Position numbers and translations under genes: made by a program
In this document: positions 1 to 10,642 of the stretch, piece after piece
How the letters are laid out: each line of letters starts with the position of its first letter
How positions within the stretch are numbered: the first letter of the stretch is position 1
The notes under the pieces: generated by a model
Seen by the model: only the letters and a program-made list of their open reading frames with translations
What the model was told of the DNA's origin: nothing
Databases searched by the model: none
Assembly: GCA_031385045.1 (NCBI GenBank)
Contig: JANNBC010000032.1
Location: forward strand, 1 to 12,727
Length of the DNA: 12,727 nt
Direction: 5' to 3'
Origin: a bacterium
GTDB taxonomy: Bacteria > Bdellovibrionota_C > UBA2361 > CALJRW01

Positions 1-113
1 AATTCAGGCAGTGTTCTAAACGAACCACTCTATGAAAGAAACCCTTAAGCATCTTTACATTATAGAGCAGAATAACCTTATCTTAAGAATTTGAGATCTC
101 CAAGTAAAATCTG

Positions 114-143
114 CTATTTTTTGGGGCATGCCCCAAAAAATAG
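114..143. terminator. Perfect 30-bp palindrome; bidirectional intrinsic terminator and/or DGR target-recognition hairpin
   Basis: CTATTTTTTGGGGCATGCCCCAAAAAATAG is its own reverse complement. It has a GC-rich core with T6/A6 arms and lies 58 nt past the stop codon of the 202-999 gene. Confidence 0.7.
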
Positions 144-146
144 AAA

Positions 147-201
147 CCAAGAACCAAAATTCAATTTTCCAAGTTAGATCAAAGTTCCAAGTACCAAGTA
201 C
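147..201 (-). repeat. Short CTTGG-core repeats immediately after the stop codon of the left putative DGR target (IMH-like region)
   Basis: Minus strand reads TAG-GTACTTGGTACTTGGAACTTTGATCTAACTTGGAAAATTGAATTTTGGTTCTTGG. Exact CTTGG copies lie at 147-151, 169-173, 187-191 and 194-198, plus variants. Confidence 0.6.
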
Positions 202-336
202 CTATTTAGAAATCCGAGAAACGCCAAGCCCGACAATGTCATTACAATTGTCAGGCGCGTAATCGTTCGCGTAAGCCTTGTCATCGTAGTCGTCGCCAAC
301 CACCAAGCGCGGGGACGAGCCACGTGCCCAAGGACC
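202..336 (-). repeat. Putative DGR variable repeat VR-A
   Basis: Aligns to 2718-2849. The last 33 nt match at 32/33, the variable core is 235-294, and the invariant codons are nearly A-free on the coding strand. Confidence 0.75.
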
Positions 337-999
337 TTTAAAGTACGAGTCTTCTCTACCAGACTCAAGTCTCTTTAATGCTACAGCCATGTACTGCTCA
401 GCAGGATTACCCGCTTCAAAATCTTCTGGGATTTTTGCAATGGCAGCATCTCTAGAAATTCCAGTAGTATCTGGTAATACTTCTCTTAACATCAGGACGA
501 AGCGATCCCCTGCTCGACTACTTCCGATTTGTTGTGAATACGAATCAAGATAGGCAACATTAGCAAGCTTTTGCTCAGTTGCTTCAGCATTTACTTTGCC
601 ACCAAACTCATGTGCTGAATAATCTCCTGGAATTGGAACTATTGCAACTAATTTGCGTAACTCTTCAGAAAGATTCTCCACAAACCTAACGTCAGACTCA
701 CTTAATGGGACAGCAGGATTAAAAGGACGACCAATTACTTGCTCACACACTTTAGCATCAATTACATCTGCTCCTAAGGATTTTAGTTGAGTGATTACAG
801 ATACACTTATATCAGGAGTTACAGTTGTAACTTCCTCTTTAACAACACTAGGAACTGGAACTAAGGCGGCGAGACCAAGAACGATTTGCTTTACTTCCTC
901 AGGCGGACGACTAAAAAGTGCATTTATTGTTGCTATTGCATTTTCACCTTGCAATTCCATAGCTAATTTTGCGGATGAAATCTGTTCTGCTGCTCCCAT
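202..999 (-). CDS. Putative DGR target protein A (C-terminal variable region, probable C-type lectin-like fold); paralog of 2718-3506
   Basis: The ORF track starts at TTG 1011, but ATG at 999 (MGAAEQI) aligns with the paralog start MGAAQEI. The C-terminus WARGSSPRLVVGDDYDDKAYANDYAPDNCNDIVGLGVSRISK has the Asn/Asp/Tyr-rich, NNY-codon pattern of DGR variable regions ending in a G-x-x-x-x-R motif. No signal peptide is apparent. Confidence 0.75.
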   Translation of the reverse strand: MGAAEQISSAKLAMELQGENAIATINALFSRPPEEVKQIVLGLAALVPVPSVVKEEVTTVTPDISVSVITQLKSLGADVIDAKVCEQVIGRPFNPAVPLSESDVRFVENLSEELRKLVAIVPIPGDYSAHEFGGKVNAEATEQKLANVAYLDSYSQQIGSSRAGDRFVLMLREVLPDTTGISRDAAIAKIPEDFEAGNPAEQYMAVALKRLESGREDSYFKGPWARGSSPRLVVGDDYDDKAYANDYAPDNCNDIVGLGVSRISK

Positions 1000-1021
1000 A
1001 CCAACTCTCAAAATTAAAAAA

Positions 1022-1058
1022 ATCTTGAGTAAGATAACAGATTCTAAGTATTACTCAA
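1022..1058. promoter_or_regulatory. Inverted repeat (ATC)TTGAGTAA-N18-TTACTCAA upstream of paralog A
   Basis: TTGAGTAA at 1025-1032 and TTACTCAA at 1051-1058. The same motif with the same spacing is upstream of paralog B. Confidence 0.5.
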
Positions 1059-1074
1059 CTGTGATGAACAAAAC

Positions 1075-1102
1075 TTGACTTTATGAATCTCAGGTTTATC
1101 TT
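1075..1102 (+). promoter_or_regulatory. Candidate sigma70 promoter of hipBA
   Basis: TTGACT (1075-1080), 16-nt spacer, TATCTT (1097-1102). The -10 box overlaps the first operator palindrome. Confidence 0.4.
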
Positions 1103-1213
1103 CCCGCTCAGGAAGATTCATCTTCCCTTCTGGGTTGGTATATGGAATAATTACCGTACGGGAATAAAATCCTTTTTTCTAACAAAGAAAGGCTTAATCT
1201 TCCCGATCGGGAA
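1101..1213. promoter_or_regulatory. Array of HipB operator palindromes, consensus TTCCCGNNCGGGAA
   Basis: TTCCCGCTCAGGAA (1101-1114), TTACCGTACGGGAA (1151-1164) and perfect TTCCCGATCGGGAA (1200-1213) are about 50 bp apart, with a degenerate copy at 1123-1136. Multiple palindromic operators are typical of hipBA autoregulation. Confidence 0.75.
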
Positions 1214-1234
1214 TTTGTGATTTAAAATCTAAAA

Positions 1235-1438
1235 ATGAAAGTAAAAGACATTGGACAGTTAATCTCAAAGCGACGAGAAGATCTAAAGTTAAGTCAGGTA
1301 GACTTATCAATTACTTCTGGAACTGGCATACGTTTCATTGGAGATTTAGAACGCGGAAAAGAAACATGTCAAATCGGTAAAGTATTAAAAGTTTTAGCTA
1401 CACTTGGAATTAAATTTGAACTTAATTCTCAAGATTAA
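1235..1438 (+). CDS. hipB: HipB-like XRE-family helix-turn-helix antitoxin
   Basis: 67 aa with XRE HTH motif RREDLKLSQVDLS...GTGIRFIGDLERGKETCQIGKVLKVLATLGI, located 8 nt upstream of hipA. Confidence 0.9.
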   Translation: MKVKDIGQLISKRREDLKLSQVDLSITSGTGIRFIGDLERGKETCQIGKVLKVLATLGIKFELNSQD

Positions 1439-1446
1439 AATTAATT

Positions 1447-2685
1447 ATGTTACGAAAGCTATTCGTTTTTTTTGAAGACAAAAAAGTTGGAACCTTAGAA
1501 CAAGATCGTCATGGAGCACTTTCATTCCAGTATGAAGACTCTTGGATTAGTAATCCAAAAAGTATCCCTCTCTCCATTTCCTTACCGTTAAGATCGGAGC
1601 GTTTTAAAAAAAATGATTGTCGACATTTCTTTGCAGGGCTACTACCAGAAGAAACAAATCGGGAACTACTTGCTAAGCAACTTGGCATTAGTAATCAGAA
1701 TGATTTTGCCTTGCTAGAAAAGATTGGATTAGAGTGCGCCGGTGCGCTCAGTTTTCGAGAATCAGAAGTTGTACCACTTTATCAAACAAACCAATATGAA
1801 CTTTTGACAGAGAAGCAGCTCCACGAAAAGATTCTGTCATTACCTAAAAACCCATTACTTACTGCCGATCCGCGCATTCGCCTATCTCTAGCGGGAGCAC
1901 AAAATAAAATGGTGGTTAAGATTGAACAGAATCAAGTCTATCTAACAATAAATGGTGCCCCAAGTACACATATTATAAAACCCCAAAGCCAATTTTTTCC
2001 AAACATTGTTGAGAATGAATTTTTTTGTATGCAATTAGCATTAAAAGTTGGACTAGATGTTGCAGAAACTAAAATTCGCCAGATTCAAGAGCTAATGACC
2101 TTACAGATTACCAGATTCGATCGTGAGCACCTGAGTCAAAACATCAAACGACTACATCAGGAAGACTTTTGCCAAGCTTTAGGATTCCCACCAGAAAGAA
2201 AATATCAAAAGGAAGGTGGTCCAAAGTTTAGTCAGTGCTTTGAATTAATTCGTAACCACTCCTCGGTACCTGCGGTTGATCTATTGAAACTATTAGATGC
2301 TTCCATCTTCAACTATTTAATTGGCAATAACGATGCTCATGCTAAAAACTTTTCACTAATCTATAAAGCAAAACAAACAAGACTTGCGCCCCTCTACGAC
2401 TTAGTTTGCACAACAGCCTATCCGGAACTAACAGAAGAAATGGCTATGAAAATTGGAGCTGCAATTAAACATTACCAAGTAATAATCACTGATTGGAGGG
2501 AATATCTAGAGGATATTCAGTTAAATAAAACCACTACAATAAAAAGAATTATTGAATTTACAAACAAAGTACGTGCAACGACGGAAGAGATAGCTAAGAA
2601 ACAGCAAGGAATTACTGTAAAAATTTCCCAAATTATCCTTAGTAATTGTGAAAAACTAATTGAAGTCTTGAGTAAACATAAATGA
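1447..2685 (+). CDS. hipA: HipA family serine/threonine kinase toxin
   Basis: N-terminal coupling domain (VGTLEQ, SFQY, PLSISLP, FFAGLLPE) and kinase motifs SLAGAQNK, HIIKP, ENEFFCMQLA, RFDR, HQEDFCQALG, GNNDAHAKNFS, LAPLYD. Confidence 0.96.
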   Translation: MLRKLFVFFEDKKVGTLEQDRHGALSFQYEDSWISNPKSIPLSISLPLRSERFKKNDCRHFFAGLLPEETNRELLAKQLGISNQNDFALLEKIGLECAGALSFRESEVVPLYQTNQYELLTEKQLHEKILSLPKNPLLTADPRIRLSLAGAQNKMVVKIEQNQVYLTINGAPSTHIIKPQSQFFPNIVENEFFCMQLALKVGLDVAETKIRQIQELMTLQITRFDREHLSQNIKRLHQEDFCQALGFPPERKYQKEGGPKFSQCFELIRNHSSVPAVDLLKLLDASIFNYLIGNNDAHAKNFSLIYKAKQTRLAPLYDLVCTTAYPELTEEMAMKIGAAIKHYQVIITDWREYLEDIQLNKTTTIKRIIEFTNKVRATTEEIAKKQQGITVKISQIILSNCEKLIEVLSKHK

Positions 2686-2717
2686 AATGACCTCAACAAA
2701 AAATAACAACCAAGAAC

Positions 2718-2849
2718 CTATTTAGAAATCCGGGAAACGCCAAGCCCGACACCACCAATATAATAAGAAGGGTACTTGTCCGCGCAAGCCCTATCAAGGC
2801 AGTCGGCGCCAACCACCATCCCCGGGGATGAGCCACGTGCCCAAGGACC
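2718..2849 (-). repeat. Putative DGR variable repeat VR-B
   Basis: Aligns to 202-336. The variable core is 2751-2807, one codon shorter than VR-A. Confidence 0.7.
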
Positions 2850-3506
2850 TTTGAAATATGTATCCTGATTATTTGTTAAAAATCTCTTTTGAACTATCGC
2901 AATGAACTGCTCAGCAGGATTCCCAGGTTCAAAACCATATGGAATATTTTTAATTGCAGAATCTCTAATACCACTAGACTCTGGCACAACTTCCCTTAGC
3001 ATCAGAACCCAACGATCTTCCTCACGACTACTGCCGATATCCTTAGAATATGAATTAAGATAAGCAACATCTCTGATATGTTTCCTGCCTGCCTTAACGT
3101 TTGCGAGCTTACCAAACTTATTTGCGGAGTAATCACCAGGAATTGGGACAATTGCTACTAATTTGCGTAATACTTCAGGAAGGTTTTCTACAAACTTAAT
3201 GTCATTTTTACTTATTGGAGTTTTTGGATTAAAAGGGCGACCTGTTATTTGCTCGCACACGCTGGCATCAATTACATCTGCTCCTAAAGATTTTAGACGA
3301 GTGACTATATCTGGGGTTATCTTAGGACTTGCAGCTTGGGACTTTTTTTCTACTTCACTTACAGGAACTAAGGCGGCGAGACCATGGATGACTTTTTTTA
3401 CTACATCTTTTGGACGTTGCAGAAGAGATTCTAATGCTCCTTCCGCGTTTGGACCTCGTAGATTCTTAACTAATCCTGCTGGCAAAATTTCTTGTGCTGC
3501 TCCCAT
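2718..3506 (-). CDS. Putative DGR target protein B; paralog of 202-999
   Basis: Colinear with protein A over the full length (e.g. LKSLGADVIDA, LRKLVAIVPIPGDYSA, GNPAEQ, YFKGPWARGSSP, VGLGVSRISK). The variable C-terminal segment is ADCLDRACADKYPSYYIGG. Confidence 0.75.
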   Translation of the reverse strand: MGAAQEILPAGLVKNLRGPNAEGALESLLQRPKDVVKKVIHGLAALVPVSEVEKKSQAASPKITPDIVTRLKSLGADVIDASVCEQITGRPFNPKTPISKNDIKFVENLPEVLRKLVAIVPIPGDYSANKFGKLANVKAGRKHIRDVAYLNSYSKDIGSSREEDRWVLMLREVVPESSGIRDSAIKNIPYGFEPGNPAEQFIAIVQKRFLTNNQDTYFKGPWARGSSPGMVVGADCLDRACADKYPSYYIGGVGLGVSRISK

Positions 3507-3528: not shown

Positions 3529-3568
3529 ATCTTAAGTAAAATAACACACTTCAAACCTTACTCAAGAT
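3529..3568. promoter_or_regulatory. Inverted repeat ATCTTAAGTAA-N18-TTACTCAAGAT upstream of paralog B
   Basis: 11-bp arms with one mismatch (3529-3539 and 3558-3568), homologous to 1022-1058. Confidence 0.5.
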
Positions 3569-3669: not shown

Positions 3670-3731
3670 GTCCGCCTACGCTTCCACCTACGCTAAAACT
3701 TCGGCGGACAAGAACGCTCTGGCGTGACAAG
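3670..3731. repeat. Self-nested REP-like palindromic element, copy 1
   Basis: Reads TCCGCCTACGCT[TCCACCTACGCTAAAACTTCGGCGGACAAG]AACGCTCTGGCGTGACAAG, a hairpin unit inserted into the loop of a second copy. GC-rich and just downstream of ftsA. Confidence 0.7.
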
Positions 3732-3755
3732 ATCATTTCTAGACTTCTTTGAAGT

Positions 3756-4997
3756 CTAGAAATGATCTTGAAACCAATTTGTGATTCGATGATAAGACCT
3801 TGATATTACGTTCTGATTAGAGACATAAACAGACTTTGGCTCACGGACATAATTCTGAATTAACCCAACTACATTGGCAAATTCTGGATTATCAACAAAG
3901 TCAGCTAAGCCATTAATATTCAAAGGTCTTCCAACTCTTACTGGCATATTGAAAATATCTTCTGCTAAAGTTGTGATTGCTTTTAGATTTGCAGTACCCC
4001 CTGTTAAAACAATACCACCTGTTAAGAAATGCTTCAGGTTAGATTTTTCAATCTCTTCTAATAAACACTCAAAAATCTCAGTCACTCTTAGTTTAATTAT
4101 TCCAGAGATTTCTCCCAAGCTAACAATCTTACTGACTTGATTACTAATCGATTTAACCTCAACTCGTTTTTCTCCAATAATTGCTTGTGGGGTTGCAAAA
4201 CCGTGCTCGCATTTTAATTTTTCAGCATTAAGCACCCCAGTTCTTAAACCAGAAGCTAAATCACGAGTAATCAATCCCCCACCAAGTGGCAGGACTTTAG
4301 AATAACGAAGCTCACCATTACTATAGATAACCATATCCGAAGTCCCTGCTCCGATATCAATCACACAAACACCTTGTGCCCGCTCCTCAGGAGAAGTTAC
4401 TGCTTGAGCAGAAGCAATCCCATTAAAAGTTAAGTCCTTCGCTCTAAATCCACAACGATTCATACACTTCAAACTATTTTGGATTGCGTTGCGTGATGCC
4501 GTAACAATATGAACTGAGCTTTCTAAACGCACAGCAGAAATCCCCAATGGATCTTGAATCCCAGATTGACCATCAACAGTATAACTTTGTGGCAAGACAT
4601 GAATTATCTCACGATCATGCGGAACGGCGATAGCCTTAGCAGCTTCTAACACAGCATTAGTATCTGAACTACTAACCTCATTATACTTAACCTTCACAAC
4701 CCCATTACTAGAAAAACCTTCAAGGTGAGCGCCGCTAATTCCTAAAATTATCTGAGAAAGATTAGTTAACGCCAGGGCTTCTGCTTGGCGAATAACTTCT
4801 CGAATGTTCTCCACAGTGTAATCGATATTTATCACGACACCCTTTCGAATCCCTTTACTTTCTGTTTGACCAACTGAGGAAATATAAAATTTATCCCCCT
4901 GTTCATTAGCAGACAAATCAATCACGACAGCTTTAATTGAACTTGTACCAAGGTCGAGAGCGGCGATAATGTTTTTGGAATTACTACTATTAGACAT
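3756..4997 (-). CDS. ftsA: Cell division protein FtsA
   Basis: Actin-like motifs ALDLGTSSIKAVV, SKGIRKGVVINID, IIHVLPQSYTVDGQ, RLESSVHIVT, VIDIGAGTSD, AEKLK, GIVLTGG, PVRVGRP and C-terminal amphipathic ITNWFQDHF. Confidence 0.96.
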   Translation of the reverse strand: MSNSSNSKNIIAALDLGTSSIKAVVIDLSANEQGDKFYISSVGQTESKGIRKGVVINIDYTVENIREVIRQAEALALTNLSQIILGISGAHLEGFSSNGVVKVKYNEVSSSDTNAVLEAAKAIAVPHDREIIHVLPQSYTVDGQSGIQDPLGISAVRLESSVHIVTASRNAIQNSLKCMNRCGFRAKDLTFNGIASAQAVTSPEERAQGVCVIDIGAGTSDMVIYSNGELRYSKVLPLGGGLITRDLASGLRTGVLNAEKLKCEHGFATPQAIIGEKRVEVKSISNQVSKIVSLGEISGIIKLRVTEIFECLLEEIEKSNLKHFLTGGIVLTGGTANLKAITTLAEDIFNMPVRVGRPLNINGLADFVDNPEFANVVGLIQNYVREPKSVYVSNQNVISRSYHRITNWFQDHF

Positions 4998-6282: not shown

Positions 6283-6882
6283 ATGTCAATCAGAACTCCA
6301 GAGGGCAATCAAGAATCGGCGCGCGAACTCTTTGAAAGATACCACCGCCTAATTCCCTTTTTAGTCGGTCGCATGACATATCGCTCTAGCCTAGTATCTA
6401 ACATTGATCAGGAAGATATTATCTCTAAAACATACTTAATGCTTTGGGAGATTTGTCTAAAACAAAGCAAGGTTCAAGCTAATGCTTTTAAAGCCTATGT
6501 TTACATTAGAATTAAGGGCACAATTATTGATGAACTAAGAAAGAAAAAGAAAATTTATGACCGAGCAATTTTTTATGCTGATTACCTTAGTAATATCCTA
6601 GAAGAAAATGGCTATAACGCTCACAATGCTCCCGATCTAACAAATATAATTGAACAGACAGAATTACAAGAACTCCTCCGAGAGGCCCTAGAGAAACTAA
6701 ACCCGAAAGAGCAAACTGTAATAACTGAATTTTATTTGCAAGAAAAAAAGTTTTGCCAGATAGCGAATGAAAATCAAGGACTCAGCAAATCTTGGGTCTC
6801 AAAAATCCATCGCCAAGCACTTAAAAAACTAAAGAATCTCATCTCCAGTGCTGAAAGCCAGCTAGTCGCAACCCAGAAGTGA
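6283..6882 (+). CDS. RNA polymerase sigma-70 family factor, FliA/WhiG-like, short
   Basis: Region 2 (FKAYVYIRIKGTIIDELRK) and region 4 HTH (LNPKEQTVITEFY...GLSKSWVSKIHRQALKKLK). Confidence 0.85.
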   Translation: MSIRTPEGNQESARELFERYHRLIPFLVGRMTYRSSLVSNIDQEDIISKTYLMLWEICLKQSKVQANAFKAYVYIRIKGTIIDELRKKKKIYDRAIFYADYLSNILEENGYNAHNAPDLTNIIEQTELQELLREALEKLNPKEQTVITEFYLQEKKFCQIANENQGLSKSWVSKIHRQALKKLKNLISSAESQLVATQK

Positions 6883-9127: not shown

Positions 9128-10264
9128 ATGCTTGCTAAAGGTTCCTCTGCAATTACCTCAAGTAGCTTAACCCAAGATCAGAGCTACGCCCAAAATTTAG
9201 CAATAAATGCCAGAGAGATTGTAGAAAGCTTAACGCTGATTCCAATGATTCAATCTGGTCCAACGGTTGACTACCTTCTAAATGAACTTGATAAACAAGG
9301 TAAAGATCATTTAATTATTCTTGATCAAAAAGTACAAGGAATTGAACAGATTGCAGTGCGTACAAACTATGGCTACGAATATCAATCTGGCAATAAAAAA
9401 ATTACGGTGATTGATCACCATGTAAATGACCCAGAATTTTCCAGATTATCAACAGGTAATTTAGCAATTGAATATTTCAAAGCTTTCCCTGATGGCCCCC
9501 CGAAAGAGGCCCTAATCACGATTACACATGGTGACTGCGATAGCGTTATCTCCGCACTGATCATGAAAAAACAAGTACCAGCAGAACCAGCTTTTGGAGT
9601 AGCGGTGATGTCAGCGGATCACAACTTTGAAAAAAATAAAATTGCAGATTTGTTACAAGCATTAGAATCAACTCCAGGACTTAATGAAACTGTAAGAAGT
9701 TTTATTCCAACAGCCGAGGAGCTCATAGCTGAAGATCCACTAAGGGCATATCGACTAGACTTGCCAGAGAAACCTTTCATTCCCTCATTAGAGCTTTCAG
9801 TTAGAAACTTAGGATTGTTGCTGGCGAATAATGAGCTAGATCCAGACGCCCAAATGAAAGTTCAACAAAGAACCGATGCTAGACTTAAATGGATTGAAAG
9901 AATTGAAAACCAACAAGTTGTAGCTTTAGAGAATGGGACTAATTATTGTATTATTCCAGATAAGATCACCAGTGATCCCTACCCGGAATTTCTGCAAGCA
10001 CTACTACCAAATGCCAAGATTATTTTGGTATTTCACAATCCTCCAGAAGACTTTAATTTCATGCAAGTCAGAGCAATTTTGGGGAATGCTGCACCTAGTC
10101 AGATAGCCCTTAATGATGGTTTATTGATTCCTCAAGATCTAATTCCAGGCTTTGGTGGCCGACGTGATGCTGGATCAAATCGTCGTAATATGATTAGCCT
10201 AGTGGCCGATCCAAAACTTGTAGCAGAACAAGTCGACTCAAATCTTTGGAGACAATTGAAATAA
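9128..10264 (+). CDS. Hypothetical protein with DHH-like phosphoesterase motifs
   Basis: ITVIDHH, ITHGDCDSVISAL, SADH and C-terminal FGGRRDAGS (DHHA-like GG motif). Confidence 0.6.
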   Translation: MLAKGSSAITSSSLTQDQSYAQNLAINAREIVESLTLIPMIQSGPTVDYLLNELDKQGKDHLIILDQKVQGIEQIAVRTNYGYEYQSGNKKITVIDHHVNDPEFSRLSTGNLAIEYFKAFPDGPPKEALITITHGDCDSVISALIMKKQVPAEPAFGVAVMSADHNFEKNKIADLLQALESTPGLNETVRSFIPTAEELIAEDPLRAYRLDLPEKPFIPSLELSVRNLGLLLANNELDPDAQMKVQQRTDARLKWIERIENQQVVALENGTNYCIIPDKITSDPYPEFLQALLPNAKIILVFHNPPEDFNFMQVRAILGNAAPSQIALNDGLLIPQDLIPGFGGRRDAGSNRRNMISLVADPKLVAEQVDSNLWRQLK

Positions 10265-10565: not shown

Positions 10566-10642
10566 TGGAGCGGGTGAAGGGATTCGAACCCTCGACCTCC
10601 TCCTTGGCAAGGAGGCGCTCTAGCCAGCTGAGCTACACCCGC
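10566..10642 (-). tRNA. tRNA-Gly (anticodon GCC), CCA encoded
   Basis: Reverse complement GCGGGTGTAGCTCAGCTGGCTAGAGCGCCTCCTTGCCAAGGAGGAGGTCGAGGGTTCGAATCCCTTCACCCGCTCCA folds as a cloverleaf with anticodon loop TTGCCAA and T-loop TTCGAAT. Confidence 0.97.

Follow-up and report, generated by a model that had tools for sequence, protein, structure and literature searches.

DGRs diversify genes with a complex of reverse transcriptase (RT) and Avd that reverse-transcribes a template RNA, erring opposite adenines, and the cDNA then replaces the 3' variable repeat (VR) of targets marked by a hairpin. The locus described here shares with the DGR of Bordetella phage BPP-1 (mtd-avd-TR-brt) an RT, Avd, a template repeat (TR) with its VR, an IMH-like end, a downstream inverted repeat and, as far as weak fold scores tell, a CLec-like target (structure searches list Mtd itself at Z 4.6). 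Unlike BPP-1, it is chromosomal rather than directed at a phage tail gene, its avd follows the TR in antisense orientation, and a leader upstream of the TR, instead of the TR-RT spacer, apparently houses the structured RNA. In layout it belongs to the known 'B3' type of CPR bacteria; as described in the accessible text of Wu et al. 2018 (PMC5758913), that type shares with it the gene order TR-(avd)-RT with a reverse-strand avd, a target preceding the TR, A-to-N substitutions confined to codon positions 1-2, VR ends rich in GC and an optional downstream inverted repeat. The non-CPR host is less expected: here the system occupies, apparently in two near-identical copies, the chromosome of a 2.8-Mb non-CPR bacterium. 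DGR clade 2, in the parts of Roux et al. 2021 (PMC8144416) available, is likewise cellular and aquatic, with targets devoid of transmembrane or recognisable domains, but is described as restricted to Patescibacteria, outside which our host falls; the function of CPR-type DGR targets is given there as an open question. As in the clade 5 DGRs of multicellular bacteria (PMC10907252, as far as its accessible text goes), we see several loci in one genome, duplicated recently, with soluble, weakly CLec-like targets that may be served in cis and in trans; unlike the cytoplasmic CLec sensors of that clade, the present targets lack a STAND, NACHT or vWA effector, and the RT is CPR-type. Among the accessible titles and abstract openings surveyed, there was no DGR described for Bdellovibrionota or Bdellovibrio and no account of a DGR leader RNA or of DGR gene conversion.

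We analysed a stretch of 12,727 nt (the window), a whole contig terminating at position 1, from a metagenome-assembled genome (95% complete, contamination 0.31%) of an LpxC-bearing bacterium whose order is labelled Bdellovibrionota. The original prediction held that two paralogous genes, A and B, end in DGR-type variable regions. The DGR is real, and both genes carry variable repeats of the DGR kind; the genome also holds a TR, an Avd and an RT of DGR type. As the prediction had noted, neither TR nor RT lies inside the window, but the contig breaks off at position 1. Recomputing reproduced its figures. Between the cores (235-294 and 2751-2807) there are 20 substitutions and a 3-nt gap; 16 of the substitutions sit at codon positions 1-2, and 13 of these have an A in one copy. 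As a control, the 243 aligned body codons of A and B show an ordinary third-position excess (70/48/92 differences at positions 1/2/3). Core A is preceded by 42 nt with a single A and followed by 21 nt without any, and GC is 0.57 at 211-330 versus 0.40 at 601-720. The last 33 nt of gene A (202-234) are identical to B at 32/33 positions and fully identical to C, a third paralog introduced below; by analogy with Wu et al. 2018, we label this segment IMH-like.

Table 1. Coordinates of the features discussed. Positions refer to the window unless preceded by a contig name.
Feature	Position	Strand	Remarks
Near-identical segment of both cassettes, left part	1..645	.	~2 kb in all; collapsed in assembly
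Putative template-RNA leader, start	1..58	-	continues in C55 (1043->887) into TR
Sigma-70-like promoter TTAAGA-16-TATAAT	59..86	-	10/12, towards template-RNA leader; consensus match only
Perfect palindrome	114..143	.	13-bp stem, 4-nt loop, ~60 nt past gene A stop; cruciform-like target mark
Target gene A	202..999	-	265 aa; probably cassette-adjacent DGR target; ORF; VR equals TR outside adenines
GC-rich constant 3' end, IMH-like by analogy	202..234	-	TR homology stops at 213
Variable repeat A	213..319	-	107 nt alignable with TR; 5 differences from TR
Inverted repeat TTGAGTAA...TTACTCAA	1025..1058	.	upstream of A; operator-like, putative function
HipB-like HTH antitoxin	1235..1438	+	Pfam HTH_3 below cut-off, E 0.002; probable identity, from position
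HipA toxin kinase	1447..2685	+	between genes A and B; Pfam HipA_C 1e-58, Couple_hipA 3e-28
Target gene B	2718..3506	-	262 aa, ORF intact; probably out of service of present TR
Variable repeat B	2729..2832	-	27 differences from TR and 3-nt gap
Left edge of insertion	3670..3730	.	beside dispersed REP-like repeat; G001 synteny stops at 3670
ftsA, host flank	3756..4997	-	ftsZ comes after RT on contig C31
TR	C55:780-886
avd, antisense	C55:398-763	+	Avd profile matches
RT	C55 from ~380		completed on C31 or C40

The word-7 blastn search proposed at the outset located a TR of the predicted form on another contig, C55, which holds the TR, antisense avd, the start of the RT and gene C in a single array. 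Every difference between VR A and the TR falls at a TR adenine (25 A in 107 nt; hypergeometric P=5e-4), as do 13 of 13 in VR C, and VR and TR part ways directly after their common 3' GC block. The predicted template stood in part: 11 of its 19 specified core codons are exact (hand count), but eight codons predicted as AAY are not, because the prediction derived a single template from A versus B, which require different ones. Avd scores 83.4 bits against NCBIfam NF033474 (cut-off 80) and 4e-19 against Pfam bAvd. The RT clusters with avd-linked RTs, and its motifs GNLTSQ and YADD occur in both of the 3' halves assembled, with the frame open across a 141-nt overlap. A further RT, on contig C10, was ruled out as the DGR enzyme because no avd adjoins it and it matches DRT/UG-type models. 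The avd/RT junction shows no simple-repeat switch. At TR position 70 the assembly has A where runs X1, X3 and X4 have C, and the hairpin loop is polymorphic between assembly and runs. Gene A starts with ATG, a TTG at 1011 being a possible alternative. The 13-bp hairpin stem follows A and C and is missing after B and after the TR; the inverted repeat upstream of A recurs upstream of B (3531-3566) and is degenerate upstream of C.

The prediction had put A and B forward as candidate remote targets; remote targets, in the available text of Wu et al. 2018 (PMC5758913) lie >100 kb from any TR/RT. The first ~645 bases of the window match C55:1044-1690 at 91-100% identity per 100 nt, and C55 continues from this stretch into TR-avd-RT. 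Its end shares an overlap of 141 identical nt with each of C31 and C40, which yields two 3' halves for the RT, 87% identical to each other and one of them directly before ftsZ. TR-avd-RT looks like a collapsed two-copy repeat: in run X1 its contig reaches a depth of 26.1 versus 11.9 for unique flank (2.2 times), VR A pieces 8.6-11.9, the VR C piece 11.4 and a 36-nt piece common to TR and VR A 33.8, all of these being contig depths, which are not copy numbers. In a genome of the same genus (G001; FtsZ 98% identical to the host's), the ftsA flank on the window contig, C3, and the ftsZ flank on C31 map 41 nt apart, and the two genes are adjacent in 14 of 20 relatives (hand count). Since G001 joins ftsA to ftsZ, B-hipBA-A-TR-avd-RT is probably a ~5.4-kb insertion; the REP-like repeat at its edge has 12 similar copies on six other contigs. 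We rejected the cassette as a CPR contaminant contig because its flanks are host ftsA and ftsZ.

Gene A thus most likely lies directly upstream of its own TR-avd-RT, severed from it by the collapsed repeat. The putative join to C31 places the TR ~370 nt from the gene A stop and ~2.9 kb from gene B, at odds with remoteness; no single read or contig carries an A-specific allele through from gene A to the TR, and run X1 leaves the stretch 887-1250 uncovered. We give very little credence to A and B being true trans targets of a single C55 cassette, their common flank a duplicated target-plus-hairpin unit. Such an arrangement would fit the assembly of just one TR and one avd, the equality of VR A and the C55 TR everywhere outside adenines, and the non-adjacent targets known from the accessible text of Wu et al. 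2018 (PMC5758913), but it sits badly with two RT halves sharing the same overlap, one of them before ftsZ, with the doubled depth, with G001 synteny setting C3 beside C31, and with an identity that does not stop at the hairpin but covers the TR promoter and the leader as far as the contig goes. Quite improbable, too, is that the cassettes derive from two co-assembled strains, or that the island bearing gene C exists in part of the population, rather than from one chromosome: although this is a metagenome-assembled genome with polymorphic TR position 70 and hairpin loop, contamination is low, the flanks differ (ftsA/ftsZ versus a tRNA-Leu island with a repeated tRNA end), and pieces of VR A and of VR C are about equally deep in X1.

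Three distinct A-only alleles on near-identical backbones (A, C and one from run X4 of another study, all as contigs) show that the DGR was recently active. The X4 allele, a single contig of depth 3.2, differs from VR C at 16 positions, all in TR-A columns, and from the TR at 14, all adenines, with one difference in 255 flanking nt; the element has therefore been active. Nucleotide identity between A and C rises from 67% (columns 1-120) to 98% (121-239), and that of gene B to both is ~70%. VR B differs from the TR at 16 adenines (P=3e-6) and 11 non-adenines. Out of register with the TR through these non-A changes, the 3-nt gap and the missing hairpin, gene B is therefore probably a stranded former target, unmatched to the present TR. 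Word-7 blastn found no B-matching template in the assembly, and the history of B is hence a reconstruction. Continued diversification of B, whether from a second TR missing from the assembly or from the present one in spite of the mismatches, strikes us as rather doubtful. The intact ORF, an end far closer to A than its body, the 16/27 differences at TR adenines and a 95% complete genome in which repeats collapse speak for it; against it, the non-A differences run throughout the VR, some near the 3' end, the hairpin is gone, the 3' motif was found once, and run contigs contained no B-like TR at 80% likeness, a weak absence.

What the targets are can be approached from their predicted structure. 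C-type-lectin folds ranked first in structure searches, including the DGR targets TvpA, Mtd and TaqVP, and 44 of the best 50 structural rows are CLec-type (judged from titles), with the VR C-terminal. Scores in this fold check, which had been proposed at the outset, are weak: the best Z, 6.4 with the full model (100 aligned at rmsd 2.9) and 4.8 with the domain, stays below the usual chance level of 7-8, and Foldseek against PDB and BFVD returned nothing at E<=0.001. The proteins look soluble, without a membrane helix, in keeping with the cytoplasmic location originally suggested, and their helical N-terminus of ~60 aa carries no STAND, NACHT or vWA effector domain. They matched nothing in Pfam, NCBIfam, PHROGs or PADLOC; a ComX match on gene B fell below cut-off and was disregarded. 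The 5.8-billion search returned only the three proteins themselves, the profile adding P0006, and the 1.84-billion profile search gave three singleton relatives. The query was unmatched in 123 other host-phylum genomes and, in a search that reaches close relatives only, in contigs from metagenomes and viruses. The A2 profile does not recognise the targets of related cassettes, and a hairpin lies within 150 nt of the target in one of seven such cassettes (L020). Atlas look-alikes (0.96) provide a lead only, two of the three clusters shown being mostly Minisyncoccota. The targets thus appear to form a soluble, weakly CLec-like, near-orphan family.

Surface adhesins for prey or host recognition, comparable to the CLec-tipped Bd2740 fibre of Bdellovibrio, seem an unlikely identity for them. 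The top structural match is indeed the Bd2740 C-terminal CLec domain, and the host carries the Bdellovibrionota label, but that match is 7% identical and within 1 Z of cytoplasmic or periplasmic FGE-type proteins, the fibre stalk is missing, and the N-terminus is not hydrophobic (maximum 19-residue hydropathy 1.06-1.55). Tentatively, the targets may act inside the cell as binders or sensors in conflicts with mobile elements, a possibility we hold below even.

The template RNA of this element appears to be self-contained, with a predicted start near window position 52 and a predicted end in the U-tract that follows the TR. A promoter scan gave five sites versus 2.0 expected, among them the one in Table 1, which is identical in window and C55 (1129-1102). 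In 10 of the 20 host-order loci covered by the scan (nine distinct), a GGAGAYAGAA motif in the leader pairs with TTCTRTCTCC just past the TR; this count comes from a motif search in related sequences and is inflated by kinship. The covarying pairs of the duplex (C-G 5, T-A 3, T-G 1) include none broken. The motif pair was absent, as a strict pattern, from 32 CPR-side loci, leaving its generality unsupported; RNAalifold derived no consensus structure from the TR-flank alignment, and tRNA was the only Rfam family matched.

Eighteen RTs from the host order form one branch, sister to Peribacteria RTs (99/95), and in our own tree host-order RTs nest among CPR RTs; a root separating the CPR and host groups also passes the AU test (p=0.076), and the direction of transfer is not established. 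The RT is a putative member of clade 2. It is 38-53% identical to RTs in 26 of 121 CPR genomes and present in 20 of 124 host-phylum genomes; an antisense, upstream avd occurs at 26 of 30 CPR loci and 15 of 23 host-phylum loci.

We consider it likely that the chromosome carries two CPR-type B3 cassettes (target-TR-(avd)-RT), the first split by assembly. Cassette 1, inserted between ftsA and ftsZ, would run gene B, hipBA (its hipA stop 32 nt from the gene B stop), gene A, hairpin, template-RNA gene, antisense avd, RT; cassette 2, with gene C and the same core, would occupy a ~13-kb integrase island at tRNA-Leu that also holds two AbiE toxin-antitoxin pairs. A template RNA starting inside the window, its leader presumably pairing just behind the TR, would feed retrohoming in which up to ~15 codons for the ligand-binding face of the CLec-like target are randomised anew. 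Recent gene conversion may have homogenised ~2 kb between the cassettes, replacing the template that formerly served B, whose hairpin may have been lost upon hipBA insertion. This model builds on the observed TR, Avd and RT, the A-only differences in A and C, the independent allele, the synteny and the two-copy depth. A wider reading would have a CPR-born DGR lineage jump once into this order and spread through at least six of its families, retaining its leader-closed template RNA but exchanging its targets for unrelated orphan ones; in the present genome, inter-cassette concerted evolution would have replaced a template and so frozen a paralog as an archive of a selected variant, and the hypermutated soluble CLec proteins would be intracellular sensors tied to the neighbouring HipBA and AbiE modules. 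This combined reading is improbable.

As a DGR the system is ordinary, a recently active element of a known kind. A 'remote target' called close to a contig end can be an artefact that arises when duplicated cassettes are assembled. The locus appears to record template replacement via inter-cassette conversion, with the stranded paralog as witness, and the compact covarying duplex that would close the template RNA offers a direct test of RT positioning in B3 systems without a BPP-1-type spacer. CPR-type DGRs form a coherent lineage in larger-genome, non-CPR bacteria, which provides a second background for asking what the soluble targets bind.

Recomputation reproduced all of the counts behind the original prediction for the cores of genes A and B, the two paralogous DGR targets in the window: of 20 substitutions, 16 fall at codon positions 1-2, 13 of these involving an adenine, with 32/33 identity at the 3' end and a GC content of 0.57 at 211-330 versus 0.40 at 601-720. 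Over the gene bodies (243 codons), differences number 70/48/92 at codon positions 1/2/3, the usual third-position excess. The window is one entire contig (C3) of a 2.83-Mb, 95% complete genome (G000); the contig edge lies 201 nt past the end of gene A. The template repeat (TR) predicted to lie elsewhere in that genome was indeed recovered by word-7 blastn, as a non-coding 107-nt copy on contig C55, as was a third paralog, C. Variable repeats (VRs) A and C differ from it exclusively at TR adenines (5/5, P=5e-4; 13/13, P=3e-10), and VR B at 16 adenines and 11 other positions, plus a 3-nt gap. Both partners expected beside the template are present on C55: avd adjoins the TR on the opposite strand (NF033474, above cut-off), as does the start of the reverse transcriptase (RT) gene, which is truncated by the contig end. 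With 25 TR adenines, ~10^13.7 protein variants are possible. The system is a real, recently active DGR of known architecture, the B3 type (TR-(avd)-RT) of CPR bacteria (Wu et al. 2018, PMC5758913).

In run X4, from another study, one contig differs from VR C at 16 positions, 16/16 in TR-adenine columns, and from the TR at 14, 14/14 at adenines, with a single change in 255 nt of flank. An error process would not yield this pattern (P=5e-13), although it comes from one contig of low depth (3.2). At TR position 70 the assembly and the X4 VR have A; the TR contigs of X1, X3 and X4, like VRs A and C, have C. The template itself appears polymorphic, possibly as two alleles side by side, and may have undergone an A-to-N change within the TR.

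The view of gene A as a target remote from template and RT was not borne out. Window positions 1-645 are nearly identical to C55:1044-1690, beyond the hairpin into the promoter and the leader running to the TR. The C55 end shares one 141-nt overlap with both C31 and C40, contigs that carry two RT 3' halves, 87% identical and each with GNLTSQ and YADD motifs. On C31, ftsZ comes next after RT, and ftsQ-ftsA precede gene B in the window; in the same-genus genome G001, the two flanks are separated by 41 nt. By hand count, ftsA and ftsZ are adjacent in 14/20 relatives, the other six having them apart, on different contigs, or lacking ftsZ. In run X1, the TR-avd-RT contig reached a depth of 26.1, the unique flank 11.9 and the piece common to TR and VR A 33.8; the assembly may itself derive from X1, which is hence not independent, and such contig depth does not equal copy number. 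No contig spans the join between gene A and the TR. Taken together, the shared segment, two RT halves, synteny and depth make a remote position of gene A very improbable; its remote look is most likely an assembly artefact. The same evidence points to a first cassette of ~5.4 kb that would read ftsA / B, hipBA, A, hairpin, TR, (avd), RT / ftsZ. At this insertion's left edge lies a dispersed REP-like repeat (12 similar copies on six other contigs), and over the ftsA stop a perfect 20-bp inverted repeat, whose G001 counterpart is similar with different inner letters. A second cassette, made up of C, TR, (avd) and RT, would sit in a ~13-kb island that has a repeated tRNA-Leu end and encodes a tyrosine integrase and two AbiE pairs. 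Two pilin-like ORFs (labelled by eye) and a fragment of an IS91-type transposase also lie there.

Identity between A and C rises from 67% in the 5' half to 98% from ~codon 120 onward, and that between the two RT halves drops from 100% to ~77% after ~400 nt, whereas B is ~70% identical to both A and C over its whole length. Judged from these sequence comparisons, a ~2-kb stretch appears to have been homogenised recently between the cassettes. For B, remoteness is most likely the wrong kind of explanation. Its stop lies 32 nt from the hipA end; it retains the near-identical 3' end and has no hairpin, and its 11 non-adenine mismatches run all through the VR. We infer that an earlier template once served B, which has since been left stranded; that a second, unassembled TR serves it seems improbable.

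A sigma-70-like promoter match (10/12) lies upstream of the putative template-RNA leader, and the 342-nt stretch that runs from this match as far as the U-tract following the TR has a more stable predicted fold than its shuffled versions (z -3.46). The aligned leaders of seven host-order cassettes share GGAGAYAGAAMTTC, complementary to a motif immediately past the end of TR homology. Among 20 host-order loci scanned, 12 have the 3' motif and 10 (9 distinct) both elements, the other two being cut by contig ends; the variable duplex position pairs in 9/9 distinct loci (C-G 5, T-A 3, T-G 1). The strict pattern occurs in 0/32 CPR-side loci, and folding the TR flanks from their alignment yielded no structure. 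For these reasons, and as the loci are kin, we regard the duplex as a supported lead, not a proven structure. Just before the TR, a second GGAGACAG segment is fully complementary to the 3' motif and U-tract; it could compete with the leader duplex or make a long-range terminator.

The host lies outside CPR: LpxC is encoded in its genome, and NCBI labels genomes from the order Bdellovibrionales. RT matches (E<=1e-40) occurred in 20/124 host-phylum and 26/121 CPR genomes. In a 48-row RT tree, whose bootstrap had not fully settled, one branch (96/83) holds 18 host RTs from six families and is sister (99/95) to two Peribacteria RTs. The tree left out the long branches L074 and L022, L096 (a host RT placed among CPR RTs in a first tree), L001 and seven rows <200 aa, and grouped L020, whose 0.6-Mb genome bears the label Gammaproteobacteria, with CPR. 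Transfer of the RT from CPR to host is likely, yet not established, because the outgroups, including host locus L045, do not fall on one side of a branch and a root separating host RTs from CPR RTs survived an AU test (p=0.076). L045 is a DGR of another layout from the same order; its avd and RT share a strand, and its RT sits on a distant branch. Misbinning may affect short contigs in other genomes; in G000, host genes anchor the cassette.

The target matched no family in any family search run, and only three relatives, distant singletons, emerged among 1.84 billion representatives. AlphaFold, given six sequences, returned pLDDT values of 76.5 (whole protein) and 84.9 (residues 60-265, pTM 0.86), with a helical, poorly predicted N-terminus. 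VIA-align placed C-type-lectin folds on top almost throughout, with weak scores (Bd2740, Z 6.4, rmsd 2.9, 100 aligned; PvdO 5.5, TvpA 5.5, Mtd 4.6, TaqVP 4.4; best Z 4.8 for a domain-only model), and Foldseek with the target models against PDB and BFVD gave no match at E<=0.001. The Bd2740 domain is described as a CLec variant (PMC10769870). A divergent CLec fold is likely from the models, not proven. The target has no stretch of transmembrane strength, like the CPR clade 2 DGR targets described as lacking transmembrane or recognisable domains (Roux et al. 2021, PMC8144416). Our best guess, drawn from the HipBA and AbiE neighbours only, is that the target may act as a variable binder inside the cell, in conflicts with phages or mobile elements. 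HipBA and AbiE modules are common passengers of islands too. Upstream of all three targets lies an inverted repeat, TTGAGTAA...TTACTCAA, degenerate in C and overlapping the likely promoter, which looks like a putative common repressor site.

On contig C10 there is a third RT gene, which overlaps the gene of a large membrane protein and has a phospholipase-D-like ORF (by eye) after it.

Positions of the DGR parts and of other features (C, contigs of G000; L, DGR/RT loci, L004 holding the C55 cassette)
Feature	Location	Remark
Gene A	window 202-999 (-)	target
Gene B	window 2718-3506 (-)	target
Gene C	C55:1245-2057	third paralog
TR	C55:780-886
TR position 70	L004:817 (C55)
Promoter match	window 86-59
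Second GGAGACAG segment	L004:905-920
Repeat upstream of targets	window 1025-1058, 3531-3566; C55 ~2085-2120
REP-like repeat	window 3670-3730
Inverted repeat, ftsA stop	window 3728-3770
IS91-type fragment, pilin-like ORFs	L004:5846-7366
DGR of other layout	L045 (G015:C215)
Sigma-70-family factor	window 6283-6882	ordinary host gene
DHH-like orphan (378 aa)	window 9128-10264	ordinary host gene
tRNA-Gly	window 10566-10642	ordinary host gene
Third RT	L005:7637-8977 = C10:22636-23976	unrelated; 446-aa frame, YGDD, DRT/UG-like scores

The value of this DGR lies in its non-CPR host lineage, its twin cassettes with probable template replacement, its orphan targets and a testable RNA duplex.
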